From NCBI GenBank assembly GCA_964187785.1, contig OZ076421.1:10540001-10604000 (forward strand): DNA of 64,000 nt. The letters are read 5' to 3'. Shown here piece after piece: positions 20,790 to 47,379 of the stretch (its first letter is position 1; each line of letters starts with the position of its first letter). The stretch is from Amphiscolops sp. MND2022 (lineage: Eukaryota). The translations under genes and the position numbers were made by a program. The notes under the pieces were generated by a model. That model was not told the DNA's origin. It saw nothing but the letters and a program-made list of their open reading frames with translations, and did not search any database.

Positions 20790-23143
20790 TGTCACGACCC
20801 GCTCCCGGTCGTGGGTGTGAATGGTGTTTCGCCCTAGGAAGAGGCAGAGGAAGGGGATACTGCAAGTACCATTAAAATACTGACTAAACTAATATAATTC
20901 TACTTACAGCGCAGCTAAGATTATTTCGTAGACAATTTTTCAGAATAAGAATCTAACGTATGCGTCACGGAAGATTTTGAGAAATGATTTTTAGCTAAAA
21001 CTTCCGGTTAAAAGATTTCACGCTTAATAGATTTTCCATATCCGGTTTAATCTTCTGAAGTTCGCCATACTGATCTAATTACCAAAATAGACATTTAACA
21101 ACAGGGATTTTTCTTCAGTTCCACACTAAAATAAAACACATTTAAAATCCCGCAATCCCAACGGAATCCATACGATCTAAAAGGAAAAATACATAAAAGA
21201 CAGAGTTGTTTTGGTGTTTTCTGTGATAAAGTAGTTGTCAATACCCACTTAAGGCGCAATCAAGTGACTTAAGAGAGGATTTACAACGTAATGACGGCGT
21301 CACTCTACTGAGCTAAAATTAGATATTCTACTTTCGCGGACTAATAACGTCACCTCCTCGGCAGGATTATTCTTAGCTAGCGCGAGCGGTATTGAATTCG
21401 GTTGCCCCTAGCAACGCCAATCAGAATAAGAGAGAAAGAATGATTTCGCCTACGCGTTCCGCTCGCTTTCTGTCCACTCTGACCTACTAGCTATAAGCAA
21501 TCTTTATACGTACGTAGCAGTTACGTGGCGAATTGTAAAATTGTAGTCCACCTCTCTACTATAAGCAATCTTAATACATACGAAGCATTTACGAAGTGGT
21601 TTGAGAACATATAGTTAGGAAAGAATGGAACGAATGAAAGTTTAAGAGAATTTTTTCTGGTTCATTATTAGCTAAGGAATTTCTTGATTAGGTTTTAGAG
21701 GAAAACAGCTGCTCTGTAAGGAAGGATTATGAGAAGAACAAAGTTGTAATGTCCTGAATTCTATACTAATTTATTACGCCATTGCTATACTTCTTAAATA
21801 CTATTTTACGGAGTGTACCCGTAATTCATACCAATGCTTTCTTTGCAGTTTATGATCAGTTGATGGTGATGAATTTTGCACTAATCCTCGTAAACTTACG
21901 TCATGTTTTCTGTATGATAAAAGCTGTATTACTCAGGACCTAATTCCAAGTCACGAAGTGTATACGTAAATTATACTGATGTCTGTTTGATGCTAATTTT
22001 ATAACCTAACCCTAAATATGATGATGAATGAATGATCCCGAAAGCAATTTCGGATTTGTACCAGTTTTGAAAAGCCTTTGTTACATTGTTTTATTTTTAT
22101 TCTTGTGCTGTTGCAGTTAGTTAGTATTTGGGACATGATACGGAGTATTCCCGTAACCCAAGTCAATTATTATGTTGGATTTCATGTTTGTTGTATACTG
22201 AAGTCAGTCTGCCTTAATGCCCATCAGCATCATTTGTTTCTCGTTTCAAATATTCTCAACGGCGAATTTTCAGCGACGTATCGTTTCCGTCACCATTTTT
22301 GAACATCATCTTTTTCCTCAAAATTCCAACTCCTTGAGTTGGATACTGACTAATAGTTCACGCCGGCGTGCTTACGCCGATGAAAATGTCAGTTAGACTT
22401 CTATTTTACCGCGGTTTTGAAGATCAAACAGGAAATGGATTATCTGAACAAAAATGATTTCAACAAAGTCCCACGGAATGTTGACGCAACTAGGAATTTC
22501 GATACCTGAATTTATGTCGCCAGACTGAAATAATTTGAATCATCGGCGAATTTTGTTGAACAAACCCGATTTTTAAGATTCCTAGGAAATTTTAGGTGAG
22601 GAACAAATGATGCTAAGAAGGTATAAATATGAAGAGAAGACATGTATTTTTAGTTGAACTTGAATTTGTTTCAAAATTTTGTTGCTCGTTGAAATTACGA
22701 AAACTCAAAATTTCTTTGAAGAATTTAATTCTTGCCAAAGACTCTGATATCTCAACTTTTGAAAATGACGACAAGGAGCCAGAAGAGAAAAGCTATAGCC
22801 GAGTTAGCGTCGGGAGATTTTGAAGCTTCTCTAACTGAAAATAACTCCACCGAGAACCTGATACCTAGCTCTAGTAAAAACCCTAGACTTGAGCTTGAAA
22901 ACCTGGAGGAAATAAAAACAACTCTGAGAAAAGAGATAATGACTGATCTAATAAAAATATTAGCTGAAAATCAAAAGGAAATGCTCAAATTAATAGCACC
23001 TGCGAGTAAGAAACGCTCAGTTAATCCGAACTTGCAAGATTCTGATTCTGACCAAGAAAACATCTCCGTAGCAAGAACGTCCACCCCAGTCAAAACACAA
23101 ACTGCGACTAGTTCTAAAACGACACCGAACAATAGTCGTAACA
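20790..23143 (+). repeat. 5' LTR (2354 bp)
   Basis: Starts TGTCACGAC and ends GTCGTAACA (8/9 inverted match). Near-identical to 34953-37299. Confidence 0.97.
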
Positions 23144-24174
23144 TGGTGACAGAAGTCCTCAATGATTTCACTAACCAACCCACCAAAAGACCAAAAGCAC
23201 AACGTATACTCAGCGAACAACCAAAAGACCGACCATCCACGTCAAAGATACTGTTCGCACCACAACCGCAGACGTTCCCATCTGCCCACCCACTTCCGAT
23301 GCCGAAAGCCCTCACAGCTTCGCTTCCAGTTTTTGATGGTAAGTCCGAAAAATTTGAACTTTTTGAGGACTTGTTCCGAAACAATATTAAAATGTATCCC
23401 CACTTGACGGAAATCCAAAAAATCAACTACTTCCACTCACTACTACGCGGGAACGCACTCCAAGCGTACTGCAACTTAGACGACACTAAAAAAGACAATC
23501 TGGAAGAAGTCATAACAGCTTTCAAACGACGTTTTGGCGATTTTCAATCCTCCGCCAAAGCAAGATGCGAGTGGGACGCACTCCACTTTGACCCCACCAA
23601 ACAAAAACTACACGAATTCCTTGATATCCTACAAAAAACCGCCAAAGAAGCGTTTGGCTCTGAAGCACAGAAATTCATCGACAACGCAATCTACGCCAAA
23701 ATGCCCGACCACGTAAAAAAGATACTCAACAGGGCATACTTGGAGGATAAACCCTACAATGATATAATTCTCCACCTCGAACGGGAAATGCGATTAAACG
23801 GACTAGGAGCGCCCGATGAAACCACCCTAGTCCCACTCAACACAGTGGACGCTGTAGTGACGGAAGACAAAAAAGACCAACAACAACGAGGTCATTGTTT
23901 CCACTGCGGAAAATACGGCCACTATAAAGCACAGTGTCGCAGGCTCCAGAGAGAACGCTACAACAACGCCAAACCTCCTACCAAAGACTTAAACCAAAGC
24001 GAAGCCCCCAAACCCAAGTGCAATACATGCGGAAAAATGCACAAAACCGAGAAATGTTGGAACGGAGCAAATGCGGCAAATGACCCCAGACGAAAGAAGA
24101 GGGAATTCACCATCCCCACGGACAAAATCAGTGACGCCCCTGTCCCCACCGCCAACACCCAAACAAAAAACTAA
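22765..24174 (+). CDS. gag: Gag polyprotein (starts inside the LTR)
   Basis: Open from ATG 22765 (MTTRSQKRK) across the LTR end and PBS. Capsid-like 'LPVFDGKSEKFELFEDLF'; zinc knuckles 'CFHCGKYGHYKAQC' and 'CNTCGKMHKTEKC'. Confidence 0.92.
   Translation: MTTRSQKRKAIAELASGDFEASLTENNSTENLIPSSSKNPRLELENLEEIKTTLRKEIMTDLIKILAENQKEMLKLIAPASKKRSVNPNLQDSDSDQENISVARTSTPVKTQTATSSKTTPNNSRNMVTEVLNDFTNQPTKRPKAQRILSEQPKDRPSTSKILFAPQPQTFPSAHPLPMPKALTASLPVFDGKSEKFELFEDLFRNNIKMYPHLTEIQKINYFHSLLRGNALQAYCNLDDTKKDNLEEVITAFKRRFGDFQSSAKARCEWDALHFDPTKQKLHEFLDILQKTAKEAFGSEAQKFIDNAIYAKMPDHVKKILNRAYLEDKPYNDIILHLEREMRLNGLGAPDETTLVPLNTVDAVVTEDKKDQQQRGHCFHCGKYGHYKAQCRRLQRERYNNAKPPTKDLNQSEAPKPKCNTCGKMHKTEKCWNGANAANDPRRKKREFTIPTDKISDAPVPTANTQTKN
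23144..23156 (+). promoter_or_regulatory. Primer-binding site, probably tRNA-Leu
   Basis: TGGTGACAGAAGT immediately follows the LTR. It has one mismatch to TGGTGTCAGAAGT, the complement of a typical eukaryotic tRNA-Leu 3' end. Confidence 0.7.
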
Positions 24175-24212
24175 AATCGCCGCGTCTACGGTTCGGGGAA
24201 AATGTAGACGCG
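24165..24212 (+). promoter_or_regulatory. -1 programmed ribosomal frameshift signal
   Basis: In-frame heptamer A AAA AAC (24165-24171) directly before the gag stop. A perfect 9-bp stem CGCGTCTAC/GTAGACGCG (24181-24189 / 24204-24212) follows after a 9-nt spacer. Confidence 0.75.
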
Positions 24213-27200
24213 AGGGCGTACACCATCGAAGACCCCCCAAACAGATACGAGGAAGGATTTTTTCACAGAATGCAACGAAGAACCGACACAGGACTGGCAA
24301 CGTCGTTGGAACGTAGGCATGATACTTAGACACAATGCACGACACCCAGAAGACCCAATACCACTACCCCAATGGATAACGGAGTCGCCTGACAATTATG
24401 CCACACTGAAACGACCTCTGCCAGAATCCAAAACTGAACGAACATACATATATGACGTGGACTACAGATGTGATCCTTTGGACAACCCCCACATATACGA
24501 CCACAACAAACTTGCTTTCAAAATCCAGATACCAAACCCACAGCCTCAGCACAGAAAAACACATCATTTTCCACCACCGCCCGATATTGAAGAACCCAGG
24601 ACCTTCCCCAACAGTGCCCGTCACCGTCACGTCCACGCCCATAAACGCAGAGGACATCATTTGCATCGAAGATAAAACGTTGTGGCAACAGAAGCCTGAA
24701 GACCCAACCATTGATTCATCATCTCCACCGCCCACACAGACAGCACCAGCCACAGCGGTAACGAGAAGCAACGATGCAGAAATAGAATACCCAACATCAC
24801 TACCCGACGACCTAGACGTCATCAAGGAATTCATACAACATGACAAAGATGACGACTACATTCCGCTAATGTCAGCAATTACACTGAAAAAGAAAAAACG
24901 AATGCTTTTCTTACCAGTAGACTTCAATTCCGTCAAAATAGACGCCCTCGTCGACTCAGGTGCATACATCAACGCCATTAGTGAAAGAGACGCCGAAAAA
25001 TTCCGACAAGATGCAAACCAATGCATCATACACAAGGCACCCCCACCCCCTTTCAAGGTACAATATGCTAATGCTGAACTCGAGCAACCTCTGGCAACGT
25101 ATACATTACGTTTCAAAATTGGCAACTATACCTTAGAGGAAACGTTCATTGTCATGAACCAGGTGTCCTTCCCCATCATCGGACTAGCATTCCTACGGAA
25201 ACATGCCGCAATTCTCGACACTGCCCAGGGAACAATTGACTTCCCGAAGATTCAAATTACGATGGCACTCACAGACGAAATGCAAAAATGCAATCTGAAA
25301 CCTATCACCATTAAAACGGAAGCGAAACATACTATACCAGCACAAGCAACGCGAATAATATACGCAGTGATACCCGTGACAACAGAACACACCATCACAG
25401 GGACAATCCAGCCCCTACCACAATTCGACGAAAACTCAAAACTAATAGTAGCCCCAGCAATCACAACAGTCAGAAGCAAGAAAGTAGCAATCAAGGTCGC
25501 CAACACAACAGACTTCCCCTACACGATAGCTCCAGACACCAAGATCGCGGAACTACAAATTCTCAAACCAGAAGAAACGAAACTGATACGGCCTGTAGAC
25601 ATCGCTGCACTCAACCTTCTAACAGAGCACGACGATGTAGTCACATACATCAACGCACTTATGCAAGTCGACAAACCCGAAGATATTGAAGAAAAATTCT
25701 GGTTCCCAACCCCAGACAACCCTGGCAATGAACAAGAACACACCACCATACAAAAACGAATTTTGAAAGAACTACGAGAACTTGCCGAACTAGAAAAACT
25801 AGATCCAACTGAAAACGCTGAATCTCGACACAAATTCTTTTCGTTATTCAAATGGACTGACTCACTAATTACGGGCAAAGACCGTGAAAACCTTGAAAGC
25901 ACACTAGTCGAATTTAACGACATATTTGCCCGCCACCGTCTCGACATCGGAATGAACACGCAATTCAAAGTCAGCCTCACACCAAGAGATGATAAACCAG
26001 TATACACCCAGAGTCTACCAGTCCCAATCAATCTCAAAGAAGACCTGACAGTAGAGCTGGCCCTCATGCACAAATACGGCATCATCACGACACTCCCCTT
26101 CTCCAAGTACGCCAGTCCTATATTTGCACAACGGAAACCCAACGGCAAACTGAGACTACTGGTGGATCTGCGAAAAATCAACGCGCTCATAGCAGATGAC
26201 TACATCAACAACAACCACCCCGTCAGCACCCTCTCAGATGCGGCACAACACCTAGCTGGGAAAAAACTTTTCTGCAAACTCGACTGCTCCCAAGCGTACC
26301 ACTGCCTTCAAATGGCAGATCAAAGGTCAGTAGAATTACTTGCTTTTAACTTTGCTAGTAGAACGTTCGCCTACCGGCGCCTAGCCCAAGGACTAAGTAG
26401 AGCCCTCTCAGCCTTCTCAAGCTTCATGCGAGAGTACCTCGACGCCGTCATCAAAGCAGATCAGTGTGCACAGTATGTAGATGACATTGGTATTGCCGCA
26501 AATACGACGGAACAACTCATCAAGAACATTAGAGCAGTTTTCAAATGCAACAGACAAGCAGGCCTGAAATTGACAATCGAAAAATGTCATTTCGGAGTTA
26601 CACAAGTTGAATTCCTCGGCAGAACCATCACCCCAGACGGAATAGCACCGCAAGACCAGAAAGTCAAAAACTTCCTTTCTAAAGTCCGATTCCCCAAGTC
26701 CAAAAAACAGGTTCAAAAATACATCGGATTCGTCAATTATTATCGCAATTACATACCCCGCCTGTCCGAAAAACTCATAGGCATGTACGAACTCCTAAAG
26801 GCCGACGCCAAGATCAAAATATCCGAAGAACTCGTCGACAACTTCAAAGAAATCAATGACAGCCTAGCAGAAGCATGTGGCCTCGCGCTCCGACAGCCCT
26901 TAGCAGGAAAGCAATACGTTCTCATGACAGACGCAAGTTTTCGCGCATCCGGCTATGCCCTCATGATAGAAGAAAACGATGAAAAGAAAATACTATCCAA
27001 AAAGAAAACCTTCGCACCTGTCGCGTTTGGATCCCGTGTTTTTTCACCAGCACAACTGAAAAAGTCAATCTATTGCAAAGAATTTCTAGCCATATAACAC
27101 GCCTTCCTCGAATACAGCCATATATTATGGGAAGCGACAATACCGACGCTAGTTTTAACCGACAACCGTTCGGTCACACGATTTTTCCAAACGAAAACTA

Positions 27201-29413
27201 CACCACCTGCACTTTGGAATGCCTGCGACTTTGTACTCCAATTTAATTTCCGCATCATGCACGTAGCAGGGTCACAAAATACGGCAGCAGATTTCCTCTC
27301 AAGACTTGAACTCACACCTAAAGAGAAAGTACAACTGAAATTACGGGACGACATACTTACGGCACCGATAGAAGTAAACCTACAGTCATCGGATGTAGCG
27401 GACGAAGAACAACTTTTCTTCCTCCCAGATGAAGAGGAAGAATCAGAACAAGAAATCTTCGCTAGGAAAGCCCTCAGTAAACAACGTGCCAACGACGAAC
27501 ATGAAAAAGACCTTTCTACCAAAGTCACCGAAGTCATCAAAATACCCCTCAACTCCGCAGTATATGCATTCGGAGCGATCAAAGAAAACGCACGAATCAG
27601 AAATGAACAAGATGCGGACCCCCTACTGAAAGCGTTAAAACAACGGGTGTCGCACGAAGAATACGACAAACACCTACTAAAGACTGAACCACGGGGACGC
27701 CACCTACTACGCCACGAAGAAAGAATCATCATGAAAGATGGGGTACTAATGCGCAAATACTACGGTGAGGACGGATCAGTCACGCACAATCAAGTCATCA
27801 TTCCTAAACACCTTGTACCAGAACTCCTATCAACACTACATGGCAAGACAAATAAACATCCAGGAATAGCAAAGATGATACAAGAATGCCGAGCCAAATA
27901 CTATTTCCCGGGACTAGCACGAAAAATCCGCGCCTGGGTTACCAGTTGCCTAGACTGCATCGCCAACAAAAGAATCGACACGCGACAGATACGTCCCAAA
28001 ATGCTGAGCAACACTGAATTCACATTGGGACCAGAAGATTGCCTAGAAGTAGATATACTACCAAATCTACCATCCTCCAATGGATATCAGCACATCGTCA
28101 CGATGATGGACGTCTTCTCTCGTTATCTTTTCGCATACCCGACACAGGACATGACAGCAAAAACAGTCGCACGATGCATAATAGACGTCATGACACGACA
28201 CTGCTACCTACCGACCGTTATACTAACAGATAAAGGATCACAATTCAGGTCAGAAGTAGTCGACCAAATAGCACGAACACTCGATATACGAATAAGCCAC
28301 GCAACGACGAAACACGCTCAAACCATTGGCATCCTAGAAAGGACTCATGCCTCTTTAAAAACCTCCCTAAAGATATCGACGGGAGAACGACGATCCATGT
28401 GGCACAAATATGTCCAAATAGCAGTCATGAATGACAATACAAGCTACCATGAAAGTTTAGGCTGCGAACCTACAACAGTGTTCCACGGACGCATCCCGTA
28501 TAACATCCTAGACATCAAACTGGGACTAAAGCTGGAATGGAAAAAAGACAACAACGACGAACTAACGGATCAACTACAGAAGCAGATAGCTGAGATACAA
28601 CAAGCAGCTAAAGACAATCTCATGCAGTCATATCTCAAGTACAAACAATACTATGACAAGAAAGCGACTGCAACGCCACTCAAAGTGAATGACTACTGCT
28701 ACGTCTTGAATCCGAAAGCTGACAACCAGTCAATGAAATTCGCTTTCAAAGATTGCATCTGGACGGGTCCGTACATCGTCGTCAAAGTACTGTCCAACAA
28801 CAACTACGTTGTACGCCGCACAGGAACCCGCTACACACAAACCCTCCATAGAATTCGCCTAAGGCTATATGCGCCCAATCAGCGAGTACCTGATGTAACA
28901 GTCAGAAGGGAAGATTACCTTCCAGATCCAGAGGTTAAAACAACCCACAATGATTGGTACGCGCAAGCTTGGGAAACCGAATTCGGAGAAGTTCTGTTCG
29001 GAGACGCAACGGAAAACGCCAAAGAAGAAACTACAATCACAGAGATCACAGATACAATCGAAAATGACGAACCTACAACGCAAAATGACGTGGTTCAAAC
29101 AACCACAAGCGAGATCACAACGGAAAATGACGTGGCTCAAACAGCCACAAATGAAATAGCCGAAGGAGACAAAACACCCCCCGACAACGTAACGTCATTT
29201 AATCTGGATGTCAGTGACAATCCCTATATACTAACACCACCGCCTCTAGAAAGCCCTCCCAAAACGCCTGAACTACCGCCTATAGTCGTTGGATATAACC
29301 CTAGGAAAGTAGGTCGATACAATCTGAGACCTAATCCGAAACCTAACGTGGATCCTGACTTCAGAATGCTAGACTCAGCTACGACGGAAGAACTACGTCA
29401 AACTCACGCCTAG
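24171..29413 (+). pseudogene. pol: Pol (protease, RT, RNase H, integrase), disrupted in this copy
   Basis: PR 'ALVDSGA'; RT 'YVDD'; RH 'TDAS..KEFLAI..TDN'; IN HHCC 'LHG..HPG..CLDC', 'TDKGSQF', 'ERTH' and GPY motif. Frame changes near 24258-24263 and ~24605, and an in-frame TAA at 27095-27097. Confidence 0.92.
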
Positions 29414-29562
29414 AACGAAAAGTTCCTCATGTCAAACCGAACCGGAATGACTACGTTAATTATAACAAAAAATACAAATAAAATGCCAAAAACAACGCCA
29501 AAATATCATCAACAATAACAAACATCAAACAGTCTATAACCTATAAATGTCTACTATCACAA

Positions 29563-32500
29563 TTATGCCACTCTATGGACGACATCAGGATCTCGTTCCT
29601 CACTAGAATCCTTCTTCTGCCCCTTTGTACCACTTTTTGGTTTCTTCGACTGTCCAGAATGACTAGACTGACTAGATACCTTTTTCACAGACTTTGACCC
29701 GGACGCACCACCATGTATCGTAGTACTCCCGCTCTTACTCTTCTTCGAGGCGCCGCTCACATTACTGCCGGTCTCTGATCCAGAAGCCCCGACACTGCCA
29801 CGAGCACGTCTGTTCGCTTTATTGCACTCCACATAATACCTCTCTGAAGATTTGCGGCGTTCCAGCAAAAATGTAGAATACAATTTGCGATAGTTGGCGA
29901 TGAATGAGTCCACACCAGGATCACAGTAATTCTTCCAGAGATCATAGCCGGGAGTAATATAAAAGATCCCTGCAGTAACGATGGCATCTCGAACCGCATC
30001 CAAAGTCACATCAGTAAAGAACACCTGATGCTCATACCCCGCACACAAAACGTACGATTGCACTAAGCGTACGCAATCATGGAAGACAGCTTTACTCAAA
30101 GCACAGCCGCTCAGATCAAATGATACGGGAGGATACTGCACTGCGGGGACCCCAACTACAAGACAGCATAACTTCAGAACTCGGCACACTTCCGGACGAG
30201 CGACAAAGCTAAAGTCCTGCAGCAAATAGCGTACCACATCCGGGATCTCACTGGCATTCACGTCAGACCCTTCGTGCCACCTCCTTTTCTCCACCACGTA
30301 ACTGCTGAATTGAGCAATAGCAGCGTTCGAATCATCGGACGACAAAATTCCACAGGAAACCAATACTCCAGTAAGATCCGCAAATAAGGTAAACACGGAA
30401 TGGGCATCTCCCTCCAACAGAATCTCAGGACTGAAACTGCAGAGGCCTTTCGCCACAACAGATGACACACTAGGACTGTTCAAAATGACAGTGACCAGCT
30501 GATCCAGGAAATCACGACAATATCTACGGAACTCCTGAGCCTCAGACGTTTTTCCAGCGAGCAACTCACGACCGAAGTCACAATTGTCCAAGAAAGTCTC
30601 CATTGATGCAGCAGGGTATTCGGACATTTTCTTCACGTCCATGTACGCCTCCCAATCATGGATACCAGGCAATGACTCAATCTCCCGAGTCCGCAGAAGT
30701 AGACAATACACAAAATGACACAATTCACTGTAGCCATGGAAGCCGTAATCCTTTCGTTGCTGACGCATTTTCTCAAAATTAATTTGAACTAAAACACCAA
30801 CAAGGGTTTACAAAGATAACGCCGAACACTACAACCGAACACCAAACGCAATCAGACAATAACAAACGACACAATTATACTGGATAGATACAAGCATCAA
30901 TTGAGAACAACACCAATCAGCATCATACTTACAAGTGTCGAGAACAAATCGCAGCAGACCCAAGCGCTGCACGATCATGTTATCAGCAATCAGATGGCAG
31001 TCTGTCCCCAACATCTGGAAAAGAACAAAAACACAATCAAACCGACTATAGCTACAAACAACACGTGATGCAAACGACAAAGCAACCAATAAAAATACTA
31101 ACAGTAGCTGATTTGCCACGTGCTTCGGGATTGACAGTACAACGGATGTACGGACGAATTGAAGGCCAAAGACTAATCAAGTCCGTCAACAACTCGCGAT
31201 ACTCATAGAACTCAACGGAGCCTCTTCGAAGACATCTGCAGGGCACAACCTTGTCCTCCGTCCACTCCTCGTAAACAGCATTCCGGAGCCGTTGAATCAA
31301 ATACTCCACGATGGTAATAATATCTACCATCCCAAATATGTCCTGATGGGCTTGACGCAGGAACTGTATGAAGGTCTCCTCATTGAACTCGTGGTACACA
31401 ACAAAACGGCGACCATCCGAACGACTACTGCCCATCACACTCAGCAAACTGGGACTGGCACCACGAACAATCAACGGCAAATGCTTTGACTCCAAAACAT
31501 GGATCACGCGGGACAAGGGTACCAACTCTGCATCAGGAACGGGCTGCTCAATAGGCTCACTCCCCACACACACTTTCTTCAACTGATTACTTTCCCAAAA
31601 TAGGACGTAGCAACGCTCCACGAAAAGATCTTTCTCGAACTGGACACTATAGTCCTTGAACGTCGTTATCCCATTGACCATTAGACGGAGAACTCGAGGA
31701 GCAAGCCCCTGACAGAGAAACGACTAAAATACAAACGCCACAATGATTCGTTATACCTACGTCTGAAAGAGAAAAAAAAGAAAGGAAAAAGAGAGAAGAA
31801 GAAGAGCACAATAACTCCAAAAGAAGAACACTATTGAAAACAACAAATAAAACTGGGAAATTATGAACTCTCAAACTCCAAACGATGAACAGGAAGACAA
31901 ACACACAAAACACACAACTTACCACGGATTCCGAACGACTCCAATGCAAAGTGAAATCAGCCTTTTGCTTGTCCAGTGACACACAAAAGTGACTCCAGAG
32001 TTGCCGCACCAGAGCAAAATCGCCTCCACAACGCAACAAATCACAGAGACAGCCCACAAAGGTCATGAAGGGAATTTTTGATTCCACGCGGGAGTGTTTC
32101 GGCAGGAGATCCTCAGGAAACGGATACCCAGTACCCAGCTCAACGAAAGGCTTCGCGCGATACTCAGCAAGCTGCTCTTCACTTAGCTGCAAGGGCTCCA
32201 TCAGTTTGTTCAACACGGGCATGCCCATATGAACCCGGTATACGACATCCTTGTCCCAGTGACTGTCAGACCGGAAATGCCGAGCAAACTCTCGAGACCC
32301 CTGCGATCCCATGGCCACATCACGCTTACAGACCAGGCAATGAAAGTGAGTCCCGGCCCCCGTCTTTGATCCGCTCACGAAATCACGGTATGCGGAATGC
32401 AACGATAACATGCGTTTGCTCAACATGTTCTTGCGACTGTACTTTTTGGCTTTTGTGCGACTGCCAGTTTGCGCGTCCATCCTCGCTTTCAACTCACTGA

Positions 32501-33532
32501 AACCTGTAACACACGACAAACGGAATGACATCGTGGAAAACCATACCCTAAAAGCCCACCCTGCAACCAACCTATACATATAGTACAAACAAATACTCAC
32601 TATTTCGAATTGCCCGAGCAGTCCGCGTGTCAACTTCTTCCACAATCTGCTGACCCATCAACTTCAGACCCTGCGGACTCAACGTCAACTCGTCGTTACC
32701 TACAACACAATGACACTACAAAACAACCTTACAAAGTAGATGATTTCAAAAATCACACTATTTTAACTCGTCAAGATATTCGAACCCCACAACAATACCC
32801 GTGCAATAGTGTGATAATACAAAATGCACTAACTAATCCACCCCTCGGCAGGAGTCAATGGTGAAGGAGGAGGAGTATCGCCCGTTTTAGCTCGTTTAGG
32901 CGGTGTCGAAAAGCTCACGACCTGTGACCGCCTTTGACGAACTGAAGGACCTAAAACACAAACCCAATACTCCCATCACTAGCCACCTTTTTTCAGCGCA
33001 TTAATACGACAACGACAAAACCTACTAACTTGTTTCTTCCTCGGAGGGGGAATCAGTCTCACCTCCTCGAGACACAGCATCGAGTTGAGTACGAGAGCAA
33101 GTCGTAACAATATCCTCAGTAGGAGGAAATTCAGCGGGCACGGCCGACGTAGCTGCCTGGGCAAGCGCAGCCCTAAAGCCAGGAGGAGTTCCAACTGACA
33201 GGAGACTACTAGCTGGTGGCAAAACGGGAGAGGGATTTCCCACAACCAATCCAAGAGAAGTGGAAGGAAAACCAGGTTGAGCTACTGAAAATCAAGATCT
33301 GGATTCAGACGCGTCAGAGTTACGGGTAGGACCAAAAAGGCTGATCACCAAAAATACCAAGGTCCGGATTCCCATGGAAGTCAGAAAGGTTTTACCAACC
33401 TGAAGTAGACAATCCAACTACATTCTCCGTAGACACTATGTCATCTTCGGAATAATTGTAGCCAGTCTCATTTCCACTTATGTGACCAGAAGTTACAGCA
33501 GTGCCACGTTCTACCTCTTCTTGATCCATCAT
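29563..33532 (-). CDS. Antisense 8-exon gene: ~1037-aa zinc-finger plus hAT-transposase-derived protein
   Basis: Exons 33532-33400, 33284-33030, 32950-32834, 32699-32601, 32503-31923, 31723-31103, 31014-30933 and 30788-29563. All seven introns are GT-AG and phase-compatible (3114 nt, 1037 aa plus stop). Motifs: C2H2 'CLVCKRD..RHFRSDSH', 'WSRSESV|SFLCQGLAP', 'FWESNQLKK..GSEPI', 'LWPSIRPYI', 'EFRRYCRDFL..LCSFSP'. Confidence 0.8.
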
Positions 33533-34174
33533 ACCAGACACGAAGAAAGACGAATTGTCAAGGAAATCTAAAAGAAAAGAGAAATATAAAACAGAAACTA
33601 CACGGAACTATCACGGAAATCCTAAAAAGAAAATTGAAAAAGACGAAAACGCGTTACGTGAACGCATCTAATTAAAAGAACTTAATATCATTCTCACTCA
33701 AAAGGAAAAGGAACCATTCATAGCTTCATATCTCAAGCTTATCATAAGCATTGACGAAACAAAACGTTTCCAAAAACCCTACTGGTGGATAGACATTCAT
33801 CGAGAATTACTAAAGGAAATCATGGAAAAACATCAAGAGATCATGAAATACGGACGTAATTCGACAATGAAAATCAAAGATGTCATTACGCCATTAATCT
33901 AAAAGAGGACGAGAGCTAAAATTAGAAGTTTTCCTTAAGGATTTAAACCAATCACAGCACAGCAGGAAAGAGTTCGTTTCACCTAACTCGGGACGAACCG
34001 GAACGAAAACAAAATCGACCATTAAGAATTCGATGGAAATTACGAAAGAAAGCAAAGTGAAACGTTCATTTGTCGTTCAATTTTCACAAAGCTTGACCAG
34101 CGCTTCACTAATCTAAATAAACAATCTCGCCTGCATAAATTAAAGAAACTTCGCAATTTCTACCGCTTTAAAAA

Positions 34175-35038
34175 ATGGCAGGATATTCACTAGTCATCGA
34201 CATCTCATCAGATGAAGAAAATATGAGACATAGCACGCCATTGAAGACCGTACCGGTAAATATGGTCGGAAGACTTGACCTTAGTGACTCTTCCACGGAA
34301 GTTTACCGTGGAAGCGTCGCCGAATTAGAGTCAAGCCCAGAATCGCCAGCGAAAGAAACACCGACACCCAGGAAAAAGAAAAGGCTAACAAGAGTATCTT
34401 TTGCCCTACCCGAAGACGTCGACTCTGATGACTACTATGAAGAACCCGAGACTCCTACTCTTCCCCCTCAAAGTAAAGAAAAAGAAAATTTCCCCACACT
34501 GGGTAATGAAAGGAAACGAGGGACTATCGTGGCCCAGGGAGGAAACGGACCCTCCGCAGACGACTTAGAGGCCCTCTACGATCTTGACTTAGAAGACCGC
34601 CAATTTTTCAGGTCCCTAGGACGAGGAAATAACGTAACAAAGAAGCCAAGCCAGCCTCCTTTCAAGCCTTGCAGGAAAGTAAATACCCCCCTCACGCAAT
34701 TAGCAGACTCAAGCTTGAATGATCTGAATGAACCAATCAAGCCACCTGAAATCACCCAAGAGGAACGGGAACATTTCGAAAACATGGTGCGGGAACTTGA
34801 AGAAGAAGAAAAGAGAATTGCCCGTATGACTGCGGGGAGAGGTCGCGGCCCCCACCCGATGAGAAACTACCTAAGCCGACCCTCAGTGCTAGTCACAAAA
34901 GAAATTCCCCATTGCCACGGCCTACCAACGTATTTAGCGAGGAGAGGGGCCCTGTCACGACCCGCTCCTGGTCGTGGGTGTGAATGGTGTTTCGCCCTAG
35001 GAAGAGGCAGAGGAAGGGGATACTGCAAGTACCATTAA
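34175..35038 (+). CDS. Accessory ORF3 (287 aa, low complexity, unknown function) overlapping the PPT and 3' LTR
   Basis: Uninterrupted ATG-TAA ORF with 'VIDISSDEE' (SIM-like), 'PRKKKR' (NLS-like) and RG repeats. The last 28 codons lie in the LTR. Confidence 0.75.
   Translation: MAGYSLVIDISSDEENMRHSTPLKTVPVNMVGRLDLSDSSTEVYRGSVAELESSPESPAKETPTPRKKKRLTRVSFALPEDVDSDDYYEEPETPTLPPQSKEKENFPTLGNERKRGTIVAQGGNGPSADDLEALYDLDLEDRQFFRSLGRGNNVTKKPSQPPFKPCRKVNTPLTQLADSSLNDLNEPIKPPEITQEEREHFENMVRELEEEEKRIARMTAGRGRGPHPMRNYLSRPSVLVTKEIPHCHGLPTYLARRGALSRPAPGRGCEWCFALGRGRGRGYCKYH
34939..34952 (+). promoter_or_regulatory. Polypurine tract
   Basis: GAGGAGAGGGG followed by CCC, immediately before the 3' LTR TGTCAC. 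Confidence 0.85.
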
Positions 35039-37299
35039 AATACTGACTAAACTAATATAATTCTACTTACAGTGCAGCTAAGATTATTTCGTAGACAATT
35101 TTTCAGAATAAGAATCTAACGTATGCGTCACGGAATATTTTGAGAAATGATTTTTAGCTAAAACTTCCGGTTAAAAGATTTCACGCTTAATAGATTTTCC
35201 ATATCCGGTTTAATCTTCTGAAGTTCGCCATACTGATCTAAATACCAAAATAGACATTTAACAACAGGGATTTTTCTTCAGTTCCACACTAAAATAAAAC
35301 ACATTTAAAATCCCGCAATCCCAACGGAATCCATACGATCTAAAAGGAAAAATACATAAAAGACAGAGTTGTTTTGGTGTTTTCTGTGATAAAGTAGTTG
35401 TCAATACCCACTTAAGGCGCAATCAAGTGACTTAAGAGAGGATTTACAACGTAATGACGGCGTCACTCTACTGAGCTAAAATTAGATATTCTACTTTCGC
35501 GGACTAATAACGTCACCTCCTCGGCAGGATTATTCTTAGCTAGCGCGAGCGGTATTGAATCCCCTAGCAACGCCAATCAGAATAAGAGAGAAAGAATGAA
35601 TTCGCCTACGCGTTCCGCTCGCTTTCTGTCCACTCTGACCTACTAGCTATAAGCAATCTTTATACGTACGTAGCAGTTACGTGGCGAAATGTAAAATTGT
35701 AGTCCACCTCTCTACTATAAGCAATCTTAATACATACGAAGCATTTACGAAGTGGTTTGAGAACATATAGTTAGGAAAGAATGGAACGAATGAAAGTTTA
35801 AGAGAATTTTTTCTGGTTCATTATTAGCTAAGGAATTTCTTGATTAGGTTTTAGAGGAAAACAGCTGCTCTGTAAGGAAGGATTATGAGAAGAACAAAGT
35901 TGTAATGTCCTGAATTCTCTACTAATTTATTACGCCATTGCTATACTTCTTAAATACTATATTACGGAGTGTACCCGTAATTCATACCAATGCTTTCTTT
36001 GCAGTTTATGATCAGTTGATGGTGATGAATTTTGCACTAATCCTCGTAAACTTACGTCATGTTTTCTGTATGATAAAAGCTGTATTACTCAGGACCTAAT
36101 TCCAAGTCACGAAGTGTTTACGTAAATTATACTCATGTCTGTTTGATGCTAATTTTATAACCTAACCCTAAATATGATGATGAATGAATGATCCCGAAAG
36201 CAATTTCGGATTTGTACCAGTTTTGAAATGCCTTTGTTACATTGTTTTATTTTTATTCTTGTGCTGTTGCAGTTAGTTAGTATTTGGGACATGATACGGA
36301 GTATTCCCGTAACCCAAGTCAATTATTATGTTGGATTTCATGTTTGTTGTATACTGAAGTCAGTCTGCCTTAATGCCCATCAGCATCATTTGTTTCTCGT
36401 TTCAAATATTCTCAACGGCGAATTTTCAGCGACGTATCGTTTCCGTCACCATTTTTGAACATCATCTTTTTCCTCAAAATTCCAACTCCTTGAGTTGGAT
36501 ACTGACTAATAGTTCACGCCGGCGTGCTTACGCCGATGAAAATGTCAGTTAGACTTCTATTTTACCGCGGTTTTGAAGATCAAACAGGAAATGGATTATC
36601 TGAACAAAAATGATTTCAACAAAGTCCCACGGAATGTTGACGCAACTAGGAATTTCGATACCTGAATTTATGACGCCAGACTGAAATAATTTGAATCATC
36701 GGCGAATTTTGTTGAACAAACCCGATTTTTAAGATTCCTAGGAATTTTTAGGTGAGGAACAAATGATGCTAAGAAGGTATAAATATGTAGAGAAGACATG
36801 TATTTTTAGTTGAACTTGAATTTGTTTCAAAATTTTGTTGCTCGTTGAAATTACGAAAACTCAAAATTTCTTTGAAGAATTTAATTCTTGCCAAAGACTC
36901 TGATATCTCAACTTTTGAAAATGACGACAAGGAGCCAGAAGAGAAAAGCTATAGCCGAGTTAGCGTCGGGAGATTTTGAAGCTTCTCTAACTGAAAATAA
37001 CTCCACCGAGAACCTGATACCTAGCTCTAGTAAAAACCCTAGACTTGAGCTTGAAAACCTGGAGGAAATAAAAACAACTCTGAGAAAAGAGATAATGACT
37101 GATCTAATAAAAATATTAGCTGAAAATCAAAAGGAAATGCTCAAATTAATAGCACCTGCGAGTAAGAAACGCTCAGTTAATCCGAACTTGCAAGATTCTG
37201 ATTCTGACCAAGAAAACATCTCCGTAGCAAGAACGTCCACCCCAGTCAAAACACAAACTGCGACTAGTTCTAAAACGACACCGAACAATAGTCGTAACA
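34953..37299 (+). repeat. 3' LTR (2347 bp)
   Basis: Copy of 20790-23143. By eye it has ~14 substitutions and one 7-bp deletion (TCGGTTG). Confidence 0.97.
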
Positions 37300-38145
37300 G
37301 CGATCTGGCACCTTGCCTATCTTTTTGTGACTGCCCATGCTTCAACTCGGGCTAATTCCATTTCATGAAGACCCTTTTAAAATGGTTTCAGTTCGCACGG
37401 TCCTTATTTCAATAATTTTCCGGTCCTTCTTGTATCTACTTTTTTGCCTTCACCAATTCGATTGATACCTTTTTCTCGACATCCAGCTCTTCCGAAATCA
37501 TAATTTTCTCCATGAATGAATAACATTGCCTCAACATTTGTTTTTCGAAGTTAAGAGACTTTTCTTCACGTATGTTTCTACCTCGAAACATATTTCAGTT
37601 TCAGAGAGGCATGATCATTTTCTGCCAGGGGCTGTGAGTATTCAGTTTTTCCGCAGGTGTTGGCGCATCTGAAAACACAATATCTATTTGTGTTGTTGTC
37701 ATTTTTCCGTATTCGTGTTAGTCTGTTGATATGTTGGATTAGGAAAGACTGCGAAAAAGTACTCAGAAGCTCAGAAGTTCACTATACTGGCGTTCTATTG
37801 TGTTTCAACAGTCGGATTTTGAAACATTTAAAACACCAATATTGAATTTTCATAGACGCTTCCTTGGTAAATTCGTTAAGCATGTTCTCATTCTCGATAC
37901 TACGAATAGTGAGAAACGCGTTCGAATAAATTTGTAACCTTTTAGTTTTCGTCGGGAACCGAGCGATTGGTCGACAACTTTTTAGAGGCTTGTACGATTC
38001 GTCGACACGCTTACCAATTCGTCGACAAATTTCTTTACCAGTCGTCCAATAAGTTTCGTGATCAAAATTGGAAATATTTTGTTGTTTGTCGACCAGTGGT
38101 CCAAACTACTCTATCAAGGTATTGGTTGTCGACCAGTAGTCCAAA

Positions 38146-41100
38146 TGTGTTGTTGTTGTTGTAGTGGCTTTACAGCTAGGCTGAAGGGACTTCTCCCCGA
38201 CGGTTATTATCAGAATATCCTATTTGTGTTTCGGCAGTTTTGACAGTCACAGTATATTTGGTAGGTGCACAATTGATCTTCAAGATAGAGCTGGTGAAAG
38301 TATTGCCACATGAAGTCCAGAATTCTATTTTTGAGCCCCAAAGGTTCGAAAAATGCCACTCTCTCCGGAAGTTTGTTCGCAAGTCGACACGTTCTGAAAC
38401 AGAACTCGACGCGAGCTTTCTCAGTACGGGCAGTTTTTATATCAAACATCATTCTGCCCTTTTTAGACATTGTCGTTGTGATATTCAAATCAACCCCCGT
38501 GAAGCGCAATTCGTGAAAATATTTTGAGAGGAATAGTAGGTTCTTTAGTTGGAAGAACATAGGCACTGGTAGAAGATTGCATTTTAAGAGAAGCTCTTTG
38601 TGAGTCGAATGATAGTCATGACATACCTATTTGAGGACTCTTTTCTGGAAATTTTCAAGTAATTTTAAACTGGTTCGGGAAAGGCTGAAGCAGCAACAAG
38701 CAAATGACAGAAGTGGCAGTAGCATAGATTTATACAATTTTAGTCTGACTCGTATTTGTGTAGCGGAGGTTTTCCTTTTGATAAAGAAGAAAACTGTGTT
38801 GGCTTTACGAATTTTGCTTTCAATATGGGTTGACTATGACAAATTACTAGTTACCATCAATCCAAGATCTTTGGCAGATGTAAGTCCCAGGAGAGGTAAG
38901 TTACTCAAATAGAATTGTTCTTCCGTTGTGCCTCGGAATGTAACTATAAAACATTTTAGGTCCTTGACAGCAAAAGACATCCTGTTTTCCACTCCCCATT
39001 TAGTAAGGTTATGAGGTCTAATTGAAAATTTCTTTGTTGTTAATCACTATGCTTTTCAGGTCGTCGGCATACAAGAAAGGTTCACTCACTATAGATTAAA
39101 TATTTCGGTAGATCGTTGATAAATATGAGAAACATTAACGGTCCAATAACAGACCCTTGCGGCACTCCACTTGTTATAAGAAGTTGATCAGAGCGTTCAT
39201 TGCCACAACGGACAATTTGGTATCGATCTGTTAAGTAATCTTTGAGAACCTCCAGTAGACATCCACCAATCCCTATTTTAGATATTTTTTGAATTAACTC
39301 ATAGTGAGCAACTTTGTCAAAAGCTTTCGCCATGTCTGCATACAATGCAATGATGGATTTAGTTGTTGGGTCGTCATAGCTATTGTAAATTTTCTGTAAA
39401 AAAGAAAGCAAATTTGTTTCGACAGACTTGTTCTTGACAAAGCCATGTTGGGAAGAAGTTATTTGGTCAGAAAAACAGTCGTAGATATGCGAGTACAGAC
39501 ACTTTTCAAAGATTTTCTCGAATACATCAAGTATTGCTACTGGTCGGTAATTTGACACATCTTTCTTGCTAGACTTTTTGTGACTAGGTGAAATAGCGCT
39601 AATTTTCCACACTTTTGGTATTCTTTTCTGCCTTTTGATATTTCTGAAGATATGATTGAGTGCTTTGCTCAGAGGTGCAGCCAAGTTTTTGATCAACAAA
39701 GGCGGAATACCATCAGGGCCTCTAGATTTGGTCTCATCTAAATCTTCGATATATTTTCGGATAGTACTAACTGATGTCTCGAAATTTGTTGTTTTCGGGT
39801 CTTCGCAATATATATCACTTGGTGACGTGTTTTTCGGCAAATAAACAGATTGGAAGTAATTATTGAAAAGGTTTAACGTTTCTTTGACGCTGTTAGACTC
39901 TTGTCCGTTTAGAACAACTGTTCAAGGAAGAGCGGACTCTTTACTCATTCGTTTGAAATGTTTGAACATTAAATCAGTGTTTCTTGTTTCTGCAATTTTC
40001 GTTTGATAGTCATTTCTATCTTGTTCGCTCGATTTCCAAAACTCGGTTTCCAGTGTTTTAATTTTTTGGTTGCGGTACGCAGTTGGCTTCAACTTCAGTA
40101 ATTTCCTCTGTGTTTCAAGTTTTTTTAACAAGTGAGAGGTCTGCGGGGTGAACCAACTTGGTAACGTTTGTCTGTGAGTCGTTCGTCGGGGAACACATTT
40201 TTCAATATTATCATTGAGATAAACATAGAATTCGTTTACCATGTTATCTATGTTCGAGTAACAAGTCGGTTCGAAAGGAGAATTTTCCATAATCTTTAAA
40301 ACTTCATCATAATCAGCAGCATTGAAACTGTACGCAGGCTTTGTGGCAGTTTGTTGTGTATAGATGGGCATTTCAATTTCTAGGGCAACAGGAGTATGGT
40401 TTGATATATTGTACAATTTTTCAACAATATGATTTTCTTCGCATAGTATTGAGAGGTTTCTGTGTAAGGCAATATCTAGAGTGTTCTTCCCGCAAGTTGG
40501 AATAGTTACTGCTTGCTGTAGACAGTGTTTGTCAAAAAAGATCCAGGACCTCTCTCTCAAAATCATCTTCACTATGAAACGTATTCCAATTTGTTTGGGT
40601 GGGGGAAGTTTATATCTCCACAAAAAAGTATTTGATTTTTCTGGAATCTCGTTGACAATGTTAGCAACAATTCGAAATCACTCACAGTGTGTCGGTACAC
40701 GCTTTCTTTAGGGGGACTGTGAAATGCACAGATCATCAGCTTATCGTTGTTGATAGTAACTTCGACTGCCACACAACACTGGGGTAAGTTGTGCTCAATT
40801 TTTGAGGAAGAAATTTTTTGATACAGCAATAAGTGATCCACCACGAGTAGATATGTTCTCTTCTCTAGAGGGCCTATCAGCTCGATAAAGCTCATAAGTT
40901 TCAAGAAAAAGTTTTTTATCAGAGATATTTGAATGAAGCCAGGTTTCACTAACACATGCAGCTAGAAAACCGCCTCCAATTACAGCAGCAGAAAATTTTC
41001 TTCGCCTATCTTCATTTATCAAGCTTTTTGCATTTAGGACTAATATGTTCATTGAACATAGTCACTTGGCGGTAGGAGTAATTTCAATTCTGATATCTTT

Positions 41101-42097
41101 TTGGAAGAGTTCAAACTTTTTTAATTTGAGCACACTCCCGGCGACTCCAAATTCAATTAATTCTCGTCTCTTTTTCAAGCATGCATTTTCTTTGAACGCT
41201 TCCTCTCTCGTTAACGCTGGCAATATGTAGATATTTTTGTTCATCAGTTCTGTTCGTTTTTCGATACTTTTGGCAAAAATTGTTCGTTTTTCCCATTCAT
41301 TCAATACTTCAACCATTATTGTTCTGCGCTTTGATCTAGAATTGTCAAATTTTCCCAGTCTTTTCACATTAACTACTGGACTGGTGACTCCCAGTGTATT
41401 GAAAACATCTTTCAGTTTTTCATTTGTCAGTAGGATATTCTCTTTGTCTGGTTTATCAAAATCCTCAGGGATACCCTGAATTCGCAGACTTTTGTTGGTG
41501 TCGTGATCAACCTTTTTGGGGTTATGGTTTGGTATCTCAGCTTTTGAACCAGAGGGTACTTTGCTCTCAATAACCTTTGTAAGAGGTTTTTCAGACGAGT
41601 TCAATTTCATTTCCATCATCAGAGACATTTTTTCTCAATTTTTTCAAATTTCGCTCCAAGATCGGGAAATTGATACTTATCTTGAAGGTTTTGTGTGTTA
41701 ATGGCCTCCAGGACTCTATCACGCCTGTGGGTAGTCACACAATCGTCACAGAAAAGAACAACACTCACACAGAGCTCCTTGATTCCGTTAATAGCCACCG
41801 ATGAAAGACCAGTACACACTTCAGAAAGGTGCATCTCCAGGCTGCATCCCACACAGTGAAAGCTGCCACCCTTGCCGATGCCCTTCTTGCAGGTTTGCAA
41901 TTGACCATTTCAAATATGATGGGGTATTTTTGTATCGAATTTTTGTGTGAGCGAAAAGCGAGATCGAAAATGGATCGAAGGATTTGAGATCGAATTTTTC
42001 CGGTTTTGCTAGGTTTTTGCTCCTGTAAAGTGTTTAAAAGCGTTTAAAATTATTTAGGTAGTTTTCCCCACCTAATATGAAATCATATACGGTGTAT
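38146..42097 (-). mobile_element. CR1/L2-group LINE, near full length, decayed (left-arm copy)
   Basis: ORF1 has a PHD (41619-41900) and an RRM-like region (41062-41628). ORF2 has APE 'LNAKSL..SETWL..GDIN' and RT 'NYRP, QHGF, AFDKV, GVPQGSVIGP, YADD'. Ends in a (CAA)n tail. Frameshifts and stops present. Confidence 0.92.
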
Positions 42098-42183
42098 GCA
42101 CGCTCGCCGTATATGCACGCTTCGCGATCTCCGTTCCCGCTATGTCTTTGCTCCTGTTCGACCTCGCTCAGCAAGATGGGATA

Positions 42184-42383
42184 NNNNNNNNNNNNNNNNN
42201 NNNNNNNNNNNNNNNNNNNNNNNNNNNNNNNNNNNNNNNNNNNNNNNNNNNNNNNNNNNNNNNNNNNNNNNNNNNNNNNNNNNNNNNNNNNNNNNNNNNN
42301 NNNNNNNNNNNNNNNNNNNNNNNNNNNNNNNNNNNNNNNNNNNNNNNNNNNNNNNNNNNNNNNNNNNNNNNNNNNNNNNNNNN
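42184..42383. other. Assembly gap (200 N) at the symmetry centre of the inverted duplication
   Basis: Run of N. Confidence 1.
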
Positions 42384-45300: not shown

Positions 45301-46333
45301 TTCTTATAACAAGTGGAGTGCCGCAAGGGTCTGTTATTGGACCGTTAATGTTTCTCATATTTATCAACGATCTACCGAAATATTTAATCTATAGTGAACC
45401 TTTCTTGTATGCCGACAACCTGAAAAGCATAGTGATTAACAACAAAGAAATTTTCAATTAGACCTCATAACCTTACTAAATGGGAAGTGGAAAACAGGAT
45501 GTCTTTTGCTGTCAAGGACCTAAAATGCTTTATAGTTACATTCCGAGGCACAACGGAAGAACAATTCTATTTGAGTAACTTACCTCTCCTGGGACTTACA
45601 TCTGCCAAAGATCTTGGATTGATGGTAACTAGTAATTTGTCATAGTCAACCCATATTGAAAGCAAAATTCGTAAAGCCAACACAAATTTCTTCTTTATCA
45701 AAAGGAAAACCTCCGCTACACAAATACGAGTCAGACTAAAATTGTATAAATCTATGCTACTGCCACTTCTGTCATTTGCTTGTTGCTGCTTCAGCCTTTC
45801 CCGAACCAGTTTAAAATTACTTGAAAATTTCCAGAAAAGAGTCCTCAAATAGGTATGTCGTGACTATCATTCGACTCACAAAGAGCTTCTCTTAAAATGC
45901 AATCTTCTACCAGTGCCTATGTTCTTCCAACTAAAGAACCTACTATTCCTCTCAAAATATTTTCACGAATTGCGCTTCACGGGGGTTGATTTGAATATCA
46001 CAACGACAATGTCTAAAAAGGGCAGAATGATGTTTGATATAAAAACTGCCCGTACTGAGAAAGCTCGCGTCGAGTTCTGTTTCAGAACGTGTCGACTTGC
46101 GAACAAACTTCCGGAGAGAGTGGCATTTTTCGAACCTTTGGGGCTCAAAAATAGAATTCTGGACTTCATGTGGCAATACTTTCACCAGCTCTATCTTGAA
46201 GATCAATTGTGCACCTACCAAATATACTGTGACTGTCAAAACTGCCGAAACACAAATAGGATATTCTGATAATAACTGTCGGGGAGAAGTCCCTTCAGCC
46301 TAGCTGTAAAGCCACTACAACAACAACAACACA
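42384..46333 (+). mobile_element. CR1/L2-group LINE, decayed (right-arm copy)
   Basis: Mirror of 38146-42097, with ORFs 42573-42863, 42854-43420, 43430-43912, 44067-45461 and 45913-46269. RT motif reads YADN here. (CAA)n tail. Confidence 0.92.
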
Positions 46334-47379
46334 TTTGGACTACTGGTCGACAACCAATACCTTGATAGAGTAGTTTGGACCACTGGTCGACAAACAACAA
46401 AATATTTCCAATTTTGATCACGAAACTTATTGGACGACTGGTAGAGAAATTTGTCGACGAATTGGTAAGCGTGTCGACGAATCGTACAAGCCTCTAAAAA
46501 GTTGTCGACCAATCGCTCGGTTCCCGACGAAAACTAAAAGGTTACAAATTTATTCGAACGCGTTTCTCACTATTCGTAGTATCGAGAATGAGAACATGCT
46601 TAACGAATTTACCAAGGAAGCGTCTATGAAAATTCAATATTGGAGTTTTAAATGTTTCAAAATCCGACTGTTGAAACACAATAGAACGCCAGTATAGTGA
46701 ACTTCTGAGCTTCTGAGTACTTTTTCGCAGTCTTTCCTAATCCAACATATCAACAGACTAACACGAATACGGAAAAATGCCAACAACACAAATAGATATT
46801 GTGTTTTCTGATGCACCAACACCTGCGGAAAAACTGAATACTCACAGCCCCTGGCAGAAAATGATCATGCCTCTCTGAAACTGAAATCTGTTTCGAGGTA
46901 GAAACATACGTGAACAAAAGTCTCTTAACTTCGAAAAACAAATGTTGAGGCAATGTTATTCATTCATGGAGAAAATTATGATTTCGGAAGAGCTGGATGT
47001 CGAGAAAAAGGTATCAATCGAATTGGTGAAGGCAAAAAAGTAGATACAAGAAGGACCGGAAAATTATTGAAATAAGGACCGTGCGAACTGGAACCATTTT
47101 AAAAGGGTCTTTATGAAATGGAATTAGCCCGAGTTGAAGCATGGGCAGTCACAAAAGATAGGCAAGGTGCCAGATCGCTGCAAGCTGCAGAGCCTCCATA
47201 CAGTGTCAAAAACGGTCCCCTGAATGAAACAAGCACCAAGAACATCAAGTGGAGGAGAGATTTATAGATAAGGGCATCGTATCATAATTTTAAAAAACAT
47301 CGACTGTAAATATATCGCAGGAATCACCAGATTAGGATCGTCGAGGTAAGTCACGACAACCTTCCGTCTTCAACCATTG

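Follow-up and report, generated by a model that had tools for sequence, protein, structure and literature searches.

The window analysed here, 64,000 nucleotides of Amphiscolops sp. MND2022 contig OZ076421.1, contains at 20790-37299 a single, young Ty3/gypsy element whose 5' and 3' LTRs (20790..23143 and 34953..37299, plus strand, delimited by comparing the pair) differ by 14 mismatches and 7 gap columns. The assignment to Ty3/gypsy rests on the LTRs, a GCGAT target-site duplication flanking the element (20785-89 and 37300-04), a PBS-like TGG directly after the 5' LTR (plus strand, 23144), a polypurine tract-like run (PPT; 34936..34952, plus strand) and a pol gene in the order protease-RT-RNase H-integrase. 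The gag and pol genes occupy 22765..29413 of the plus strand, with a single in-frame stop in pol at 27095-27097, and the element has no env. Two further genes sit between pol and the 3' LTR: an antisense gene (29563..33567, minus strand) and a sense accessory ORF of 287 aa (34175..35038, plus strand), the final 86 nt of which lie within the 3' LTR, as does a copy of the gag start. Acoel genomes are more than half repeats, mostly LTR retrotransposons (extract of PMC9911081).

Several other features of the element and its surroundings were recorded. Gag starts about 380 nt within the LTR (22765-23143) in a frame that crosses the PBS, and the repeat of this start in the 3' LTR (36921-37299) continues into flanking DNA as a 144-aa ORF. 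An A AAA AAC heptamer immediately 5' of the gag stop (24165-24174) resembles a -1 frameshift slippery site. The LTR carries a site, GTTRCCnnAGCAAC, that resembles the RFX X-box consensus, beside a CCAAT box (35555-35580 and 21399-21424); it is retained in 10 of 13 aligned lineages, and its left half is deleted in the 3' LTR of this copy. Together with ETS-like ACTTCCGG sites in the LTR, it may indicate expression in ciliated or sperm cells. Large inverted repeats span the window, and the element is inserted in one of their arms; near-identical pieces of 3.7-5.8 kb (97-99%) relate 37298-47180 to 14252-20795 and 47167-56662. Either the region was duplicated segmentally in inverted orientation, or the pattern is a feature of the assembly. 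Several copies of a dispersed repeat, each about 190-230 nt long, lie in both orientations at 12616-12842, 14698-14924, 42118-42181 and 55990-58063.

The accessory ORF begins at an ATG within AAAAATGG, with a stop codon shortly upstream, and its 287 codons remain open across the PPT and terminate 86 nt inside the 3' LTR, as an earlier note on this DNA had described; its description there as intronless also stands, on the basis of the continuous reading frame. The longest ATG-initiated ORF in 1000 shuffles of 33570-35100 averaged 77 aa, with a maximum of 210 aa. The ORF recurs in hundreds of scored copies, most of them intact. A search of the host's own genome returned 55 full-length matches at 93% identity or higher, 53 of them stop-free, a proportion that is inflated because the scored copies were the best 136 of 1878 candidates. 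Among best candidates only, further subfamilies were found at about 82, 73 and 55% identity, and database homologs down to about 28-29% identity map back to the host genome. Frame and ATG are conserved in the scored copies over 29-100% identity, the first ATG being absent in two of the first 30, and an open ORF of at least 205 aa with both an ATG and the SUMO-interacting motif (SIM) considered below was found at 47 of 51 loci examined. The copies form two clades, A (270-301 aa, to which the window copy belongs) and B (216-244 aa).

At most long loci the ORF adjoins the same antisense gene, with pol 87-96% identical in protein, and some loci are deletion or duplication derivatives. One of these (L040) has lost the body of the antisense gene and retains the accessory ORF with its upstream motifs, another (L071) lacks pol, and three (L033, L034 and L046) have duplicated antisense segments. 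Copies of the ORF also occur in tandem (C9:54627215-54659683, C13:16519447-16558351 and C1:92023364-92029420) at a spacing of either the element length or about 2.6-2.9 kb, suggesting a mixture of tandem elements and ORF-plus-LTR repeats.

Pairwise dN/dS among nine copies was 0.07-0.18 (bootstrap 0.07-0.15 for the pair L001 and L031), and the differences between L001 and L031 are heaped at third codon positions (25, 29 and 109 at positions one to three); the five other frames are closed by 6-21 stops. Over 110 non-independent pairs from 42 copies the median was 0.125 (range 0.08-0.55), compared to 0.044 for the integrase and 0.08-0.11 for two antisense exons. The test proposed in the earlier note, conservation of the ORF and dN/dS across copies, thus returned purifying selection, and we are practically certain that the accessory ORF is a protein-coding gene. 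It is not an env gene, a point on which the earlier note was also correct: the highest 19-residue hydropathy is 0.41 in this copy, with no signal peptide or transmembrane segment, and 0.21-1.48 across 46 copies, whereas an Env, an env-like protein or an sORF2-type fusogen would have such a segment. One portion of the frame is conserved mainly as DNA. Because pS is 0.19 over codons 255-267, the invariance of the C-terminal RGALSRPAPGR is mainly a DNA-level constraint imposed by the PPT and the LTR end, and the RG content of the protein is partly forced in the same way.

The accessory protein is predicted to be disordered, as AlphaFold2 with 24 homologs gave a pTM of 0.19 and a single confident helix at residues 195-220. 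Protein-level constraint is limited to islands of 5-10 residues with saturated synonymous sites, and the linkers have pN values of 0.28-0.38 (pS and pN pooled over 20 lineage representatives). The motifs described here were picked once the alignments had been viewed, using the consensus patterns for SIM, CDK-type, Polo-box, KEN and D-box motifs, and were counted in 46 intact copies (28 of clade A and 18 of clade B, with the truncated L042 excluded). Shuffled proteins yield STPxK at a rate of 0.02, KEN at 0.06, RVxF at 0.14, a generic SIM and a basic NLS at 0.30 each, and LxxIxE at 0.52.

The SIM-like sequence LVIDISSDEE was correctly reported in the earlier note, but it occupies residues 6-15 (34190..34219, plus strand), after a MAGYS start, rather than the very beginning of the protein. 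It combines a hydrophobic core with a Ser/acidic flank in a disordered region and is conserved at the protein level (pS 0.81, pN 0.02), which are the properties looked for in a SIM. Its presence in 46 of 46 intact copies is circular, those copies having been picked by the SIM; with a SIM-independent anchor, absent from 4 of 86 loci, the pattern [VI][VIL]D[VIL]SSD[DE] is retained in 79 of 82 copies, a count in which a few loci overlap. We therefore regard this as a motif conserved as protein, and the accessory protein probably binds SUMO. A complex prediction of SUMO with residues 1-110, made without alignments or folded controls, scored 0.00 and counts neither way. The host genome encodes SUMO, PP1 and B56, as any animal would, and relatives of the host SUMO were found in Convolutriloba macropyga (83%) and Symsagittifera roscoffensis (80%). 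Two host ORFs on C11 (L077 and L079) are each about 500 aa long and have an unrelated N-terminus followed by several ubiquitin-like repeats that have diverged.

Downstream of the SIM, STPLK (34232..34246, plus strand; pS 0.86, pN 0.06) resembles a CDK-type site and a Polo-box-docking S-T-P, and STPxK is present in 43 of the 46 intact copies (25 of clade A, 18 of clade B). The stretch TPRKKKR-LT-RVSF (34364..34402, plus strand) places a CDK-type site, a basic run and an RVxF PP1-type motif side by side. PRKKKR, at residues 65-70, had been listed as NLS-like; the sequence is present, but the basic K-K/R-x-K/R pattern is clade-specific (28/28 in A), and such an NLS is not universal because only 4/18 clade B copies have the basic run. 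In clade A the run leads into RVSF, KVSF, RVTF or KVTF, matching the PP1-docking consensus [K/R]x(0-1)[V/I]x[F/W] (extract of PMC6406801). RVxF is found in 27/28 copies of clade A and 9/18 of clade B; in half of clade B a CDK-type site is followed by RKITF or RKINF, and with a pN of 0.34 pooled over both clades the motif is not especially constrained. On balance, the sequences tip slightly toward PP1 binding in clade A.

A KEN-box-like motif (34481..34489, plus strand) is present in 27/28 clade A and 4/18 clade B copies, at residue 103, 124 or about 170 depending on lineage. Clade B has instead LxDxxN (18/18, and 0/28 in clade A), which lacks the D-box arginine; these shifts would be the turnover expected of linear motifs. 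The acidic helix noted earlier corresponds to the AlphaFold2 helix at residues 195-220 (34757..34834, plus strand), but copy counts confine it to clade A (20/28, compared to 0/18 in B). Two islands, YYEEP (34433..34447, plus strand; 45/46 intact copies, pS 1.05, pN 0.05) and EIPHC (34901..34915, plus strand; pS 0.83, pN 0.01), equal the SIM in conservation and have no partner assigned. L[ND]DLxE, which fits B56 docking, is found in 41 of 46 copies (LxxIxE consensus from the extract of PMC6406801), and GRG-type motifs are found in all 46.

Searches for relatives beyond the host returned little. Pfam searches with 24 members found no match, including no Nef and no foamy Tas or Bet family, and neither the ESM Atlas search nor the PDB sequence search found a relative, the latter including no Nef. 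A coiled-coil-like PDB match (E 0.007) was judged spurious, and a 20-column likeness to the Gag N-terminus was rejected at a probability of 9%. Pattern matches numbered 117 in metagenome contigs and 32 in viral contigs, none of them confirmed as a relative. A profile search of 1.84 billion representatives gave 177 matches; among the 150 listed, 137 were new, and every one of these aligns to the 99 homologs found first. In the literature searched, mostly titles and abstract openings, neither this accessory gene nor any retrotransposon accessory protein of the SIM/RVxF kind is described; the family could be present in repeat libraries that accompany acoel genome papers as supplements. Planarian Burro (extract of PMC6431247) and, with sORF2, Drosophila (preprint 10.1101/2025.03.14.642691) provide known cases of additional ORFs. 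Acoels are absent from the main text of PMC13524379, and the extract of PMC10144533 has SIM in a general sentence only.

The region upstream of the ORF suggests how it may be expressed. Both clades conserve TGACG motifs, one CCAAT box or two separated by about 70-74 nt, and a TCA[CT]TT motif about 47 nt beyond the second, in sequence where synonymous sites are saturated. In the window copy these define a predicted internal promoter at 33946..34075 (plus strand), with CCAAT at 33946-55, a second box at 34017-26 that reads CCATT, and the initiator- or branch-like TCA[CT]TT at 34066-75; the patterns used are the NF-Y and initiator consensus sequences. Dinucleotide shuffling of each copy puts two CCAAT boxes in 300 nt by chance in 2-11% of cases, so it is the fixed spacing across clades that constitutes real evidence. 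The motifs suggest an internal promoter, by analogy with those of foamy-virus tas/bet and the Tor env gene, and a layout closer to tas/bet than to a spliced nef. Alternatively, TCA[CT]TT could be a branch point before an acceptor: a good AG (CAG) follows it by 20-25 nt in several clade A copies, but no sense acceptor upstream of the ATG was scored in as many as 9 of 20 lineages. Spliced-leader trans-splicing is common in S. roscoffensis (extract of PMC9911081).

On the minus strand, a donor-like GTAAGT lies just beyond the ORF stop (35063..35070) and passes a simple score in 13 of 20 lineages, and acceptor-like sites occur in U3 (14-19 of 20 lineages) and at about 33807 (13 of 20); the same simple score flags other sites too. 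Tentatively, the antisense transcript may begin in the LTR, with the accessory ORF inside its intron, and the splice-like U3 sites favour such a start over a bidirectional internal promoter. The GTAAGT donor in clade A (35063-35072) is at the same time a plus-strand acceptor-like TTACAG with CTAAT upstream (14 of 20 lineages), and clade B retains the donor alone.

The antisense gene itself has eight predicted GT-AG coding exons on the minus strand (33567-33400, 33284-33030, 32950 or 32941-32834, 32699-32601, 32503-31923, 31723-31103, 31014-30933 and 30788-29563) that join into one open frame of 1034-1037 aa. Its protein has a CxxC..H..H finger. A test for the zinc finger, RNase H-like core and dimerisation domain of a hAT transposase saw this finger and, with the last exon alone folded (pTM 0.34, best Z 5.2), the fold search gave that exon no clear match. 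The first antisense coding intron (33290-33399) is nearly invariant among lineages whose exons are saturated, which suggests a cis-acting RNA or DNA element.

The earlier note had suggested that the accessory protein might partner the antisense protein, and this idea is weakened by comparing their histories. Distances between ORFs correlate with those of the adjacent 500 nt of LTR (Mantel 0.83) and of the integrase (0.77), and hardly with those of two antisense exons (0.12, p 0.02; 0.07, p 0.08). When trees of 21 copies were compared, the ORF tree was compatible with one of the 14 supported antisense splits and with 8 of 15 integrase splits. The ORF and antisense trees are thus incongruent, and the antisense cassette is swapped independently. 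This makes a co-evolving interface less likely, whereas the two proteins could still meet through an invariant motif. The two antisense exons tested hold no conserved SUMO-acceptor site.

A comparison of the accessory gene with known systems shows likenesses that are each partial. Nef overlaps the PPT, acts as a motif-driven adaptor, is myristoylated at an N-terminal Gly2 and has a folded core. The description of the accessory ORF as nef-like holds for its position over the PPT and U3, but Gly2, a fold and a Pfam match are all absent: the protein starts MAGY (MNGY, MNNY or MSNY in relatives), is predicted to be disordered and is encoded in an env-less gypsy element. HIV and SIV nef is likewise a sense accessory ORF overlapping the U3 of the 3' LTR, expressed from doubly spliced RNA, and its product targets CD4, MHC-I and SERINC (extract of PMC12789967). 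The same extract describes foamy virus tas and bet as 3' regulatory genes transcribed from an internal promoter, comparable to the one predicted here, with Tas trans-activating both promoters; no sequence match of the accessory protein to Tas or Bet was found in Pfam, and its element has no env.

Among retrotransposons, plant LTR elements carry conserved additional ORFs between pol and the 3' LTR, both env-like (aORF-3S) and of the aORF-3R type (Grande gene23, Retand); the sense ORFs are env-like, some with transmembrane segments, and the nuclear ones are antisense, Grande gene23 being nuclear with its own promoter (extract of PMC7264820). The accessory ORF shares with the aORF-3S position its occurrence in most copies and its purifying selection, as judged from best-scoring copies only, but it is sense and non-transmembrane, crosses the PPT and lies back to back with a spliced antisense gene. 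In the Oikopleura Tor elements, an animal example, the 3' gene is also under an internal promoter (extract of PMC4402516), but it encodes a membrane Env glycoprotein.

Host and viral scaffolds such as Repo-Man, KNL1, PML and Daxx with their SIMs, ICP34.5 and Vif are disordered proteins acting through RVxF, SIM, CDK or degron motifs. The RVxF and LxxIxE patterns are those of the extract of PMC6406801, and the accessory protein resembles the scaffolds by motif only, not by homology. Plant factors of the VANC type recognise specific DNA sequences with folded pockets and strip DNA methylation, whereas the accessory protein has no predicted fold. The plant DNA-transposon anti-silencing factors provide a case of transposon-encoded counter-silencing (extract of PMC11512509).

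Taken together, we tentatively propose that the accessory protein acts as an adaptor mimicking host motifs and works against SUMO-dependent silencing while cells are cycling, a mechanism that as a whole we consider plausible at somewhat less than even odds. The protein would be made early from its own internal promoter; its N-terminal motif would bind SUMO, with the following serines serving as CK2-type sites; CDK would phosphorylate it and Polo kinase would dock, plus PP1 in clade A; and APC/C would clear it through the KEN or D-box-like motifs. The outcome would be that dividing cells silence the element less tightly through SUMO. Promoter use, nuclear location, binding partners, cell-cycle timing and the anti-silencing outcome are steps that we infer. 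During Piwi silencing in Drosophila, scaffolds built on SUMO and SIMs bring in the H3K9 methyltransferase along with remodelers (extract of PMC8490990). A SIM that competes with these and is joined to a phosphatase dock would therefore likely weaken silencing; that SUMO plays such a part at acoel transposons is an extrapolation from the fly.

Other functions would account for part of the same evidence. Most of the conserved motifs apart from the SIM look like degrons or docking sites used in mitosis, and the B56-fitting L[ND]DLxE in 41/46 copies could be added to them, as would suit a Vpr/Vif-like modulator that titrates or redirects PP1, Polo kinase and APC/C, prolonging the transcription or integration phase, with the SIM serving only to localise it. 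However, the B56 pattern arises in 52% of shuffles, degrons may merely time the protein's own turnover and the SIM is the most constrained element, leaving a modulator of this kind rather unlikely. We find it unlikely, too, that the protein, perhaps brought in by the antisense zinc-finger product, trans- or co-activates the LTR and the internal promoter in the manner of Tas: the ORF tracks the LTR and integrase (Mantel 0.83 and 0.77) and hardly the antisense exons (0.12 and 0.07), one of 14 supported antisense splits fits its tree, the two antisense exons tested have no conserved SUMO-acceptor site, and the protein has no DNA-binding fold and, in clade B, no acidic helix. Such an activator would nonetheless be consistent with an acidic, disordered protein, CCAAT and TGACG motifs common to the LTR and the upstream region, an antisense gene that adjoins the ORF in most long loci examined, and a predicted internal-promoter layout like that of foamy tas/bet (extract of PMC12789967).

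The cell-cycle-type motifs and RG repeats might also belong to an MLV p12-like integration helper that anchors the pre-integration complex on chromatin that is mitotic or SUMOylated. Inheritance with the integrase (Mantel 0.77) would agree with this but follows from linkage, and the integrase psi-K-x-E site kept in 24 of 24 copies means little because the integrase is about 95% conserved as protein; a separate promoter, if the upstream motifs act as one, suggests an early regulator over a particle component, and we judge a helper quite unlikely. It is improbable that the protein is a self-limiting or RNA-level factor that restrains copying of the element, or whose RG repeats bind RNA or Tudor proteins and blunt cytoplasmic piRNA processing: GRG-type motifs occur in 46 of 46 intact copies, but RG content is partly forced by the PPT and LTR end, and the SIM and CDK-type motifs point to nuclear partners. 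Overlap of sense and antisense transcription could, for its part, yield double-stranded RNA, as discussed for plant elements (extract of PMC7264820). Hardly any weight can be given to the frame being a by-product of cis-acting DNA (PPT, LTR end and promoter) with no functional protein; codons 255-267 are DNA-constrained (pS 0.19), but elsewhere amino acids are kept despite saturated synonymous sites, frame and ATG persist over 29-100% identity, and dN/dS contradicts it.

In conclusion, an env-less, simple gypsy element appears to have reached the architecture of a complex retrovirus, with two accessory genes, a predicted internal promoter and an overlap with the LTR. The more ambitious version of our proposal is that an env-less animal clade has assembled a virus-style chain of mimicry (phospho-SIM, CDK and Polo sites, PP1 dock and APC/C degrons), expressed from a promoter that lies in an antisense-gene intron and acting at one defined stage of the stem-cell cycle to disarm silencing that depends on SUMO; as a whole we consider this version rather less likely than not. 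If true, the accessory protein would be a retrotransposon-encoded suppressor of animal SUMO/piRNA silencing, of which no example was found in the titles, abstract openings and extracts searched. Most of the constraint falls on four or five short motifs, making the protein a compact candidate in which each motif is separately testable, and the finding bears on how LTR elements pass silencing in stem-cell-rich animals.
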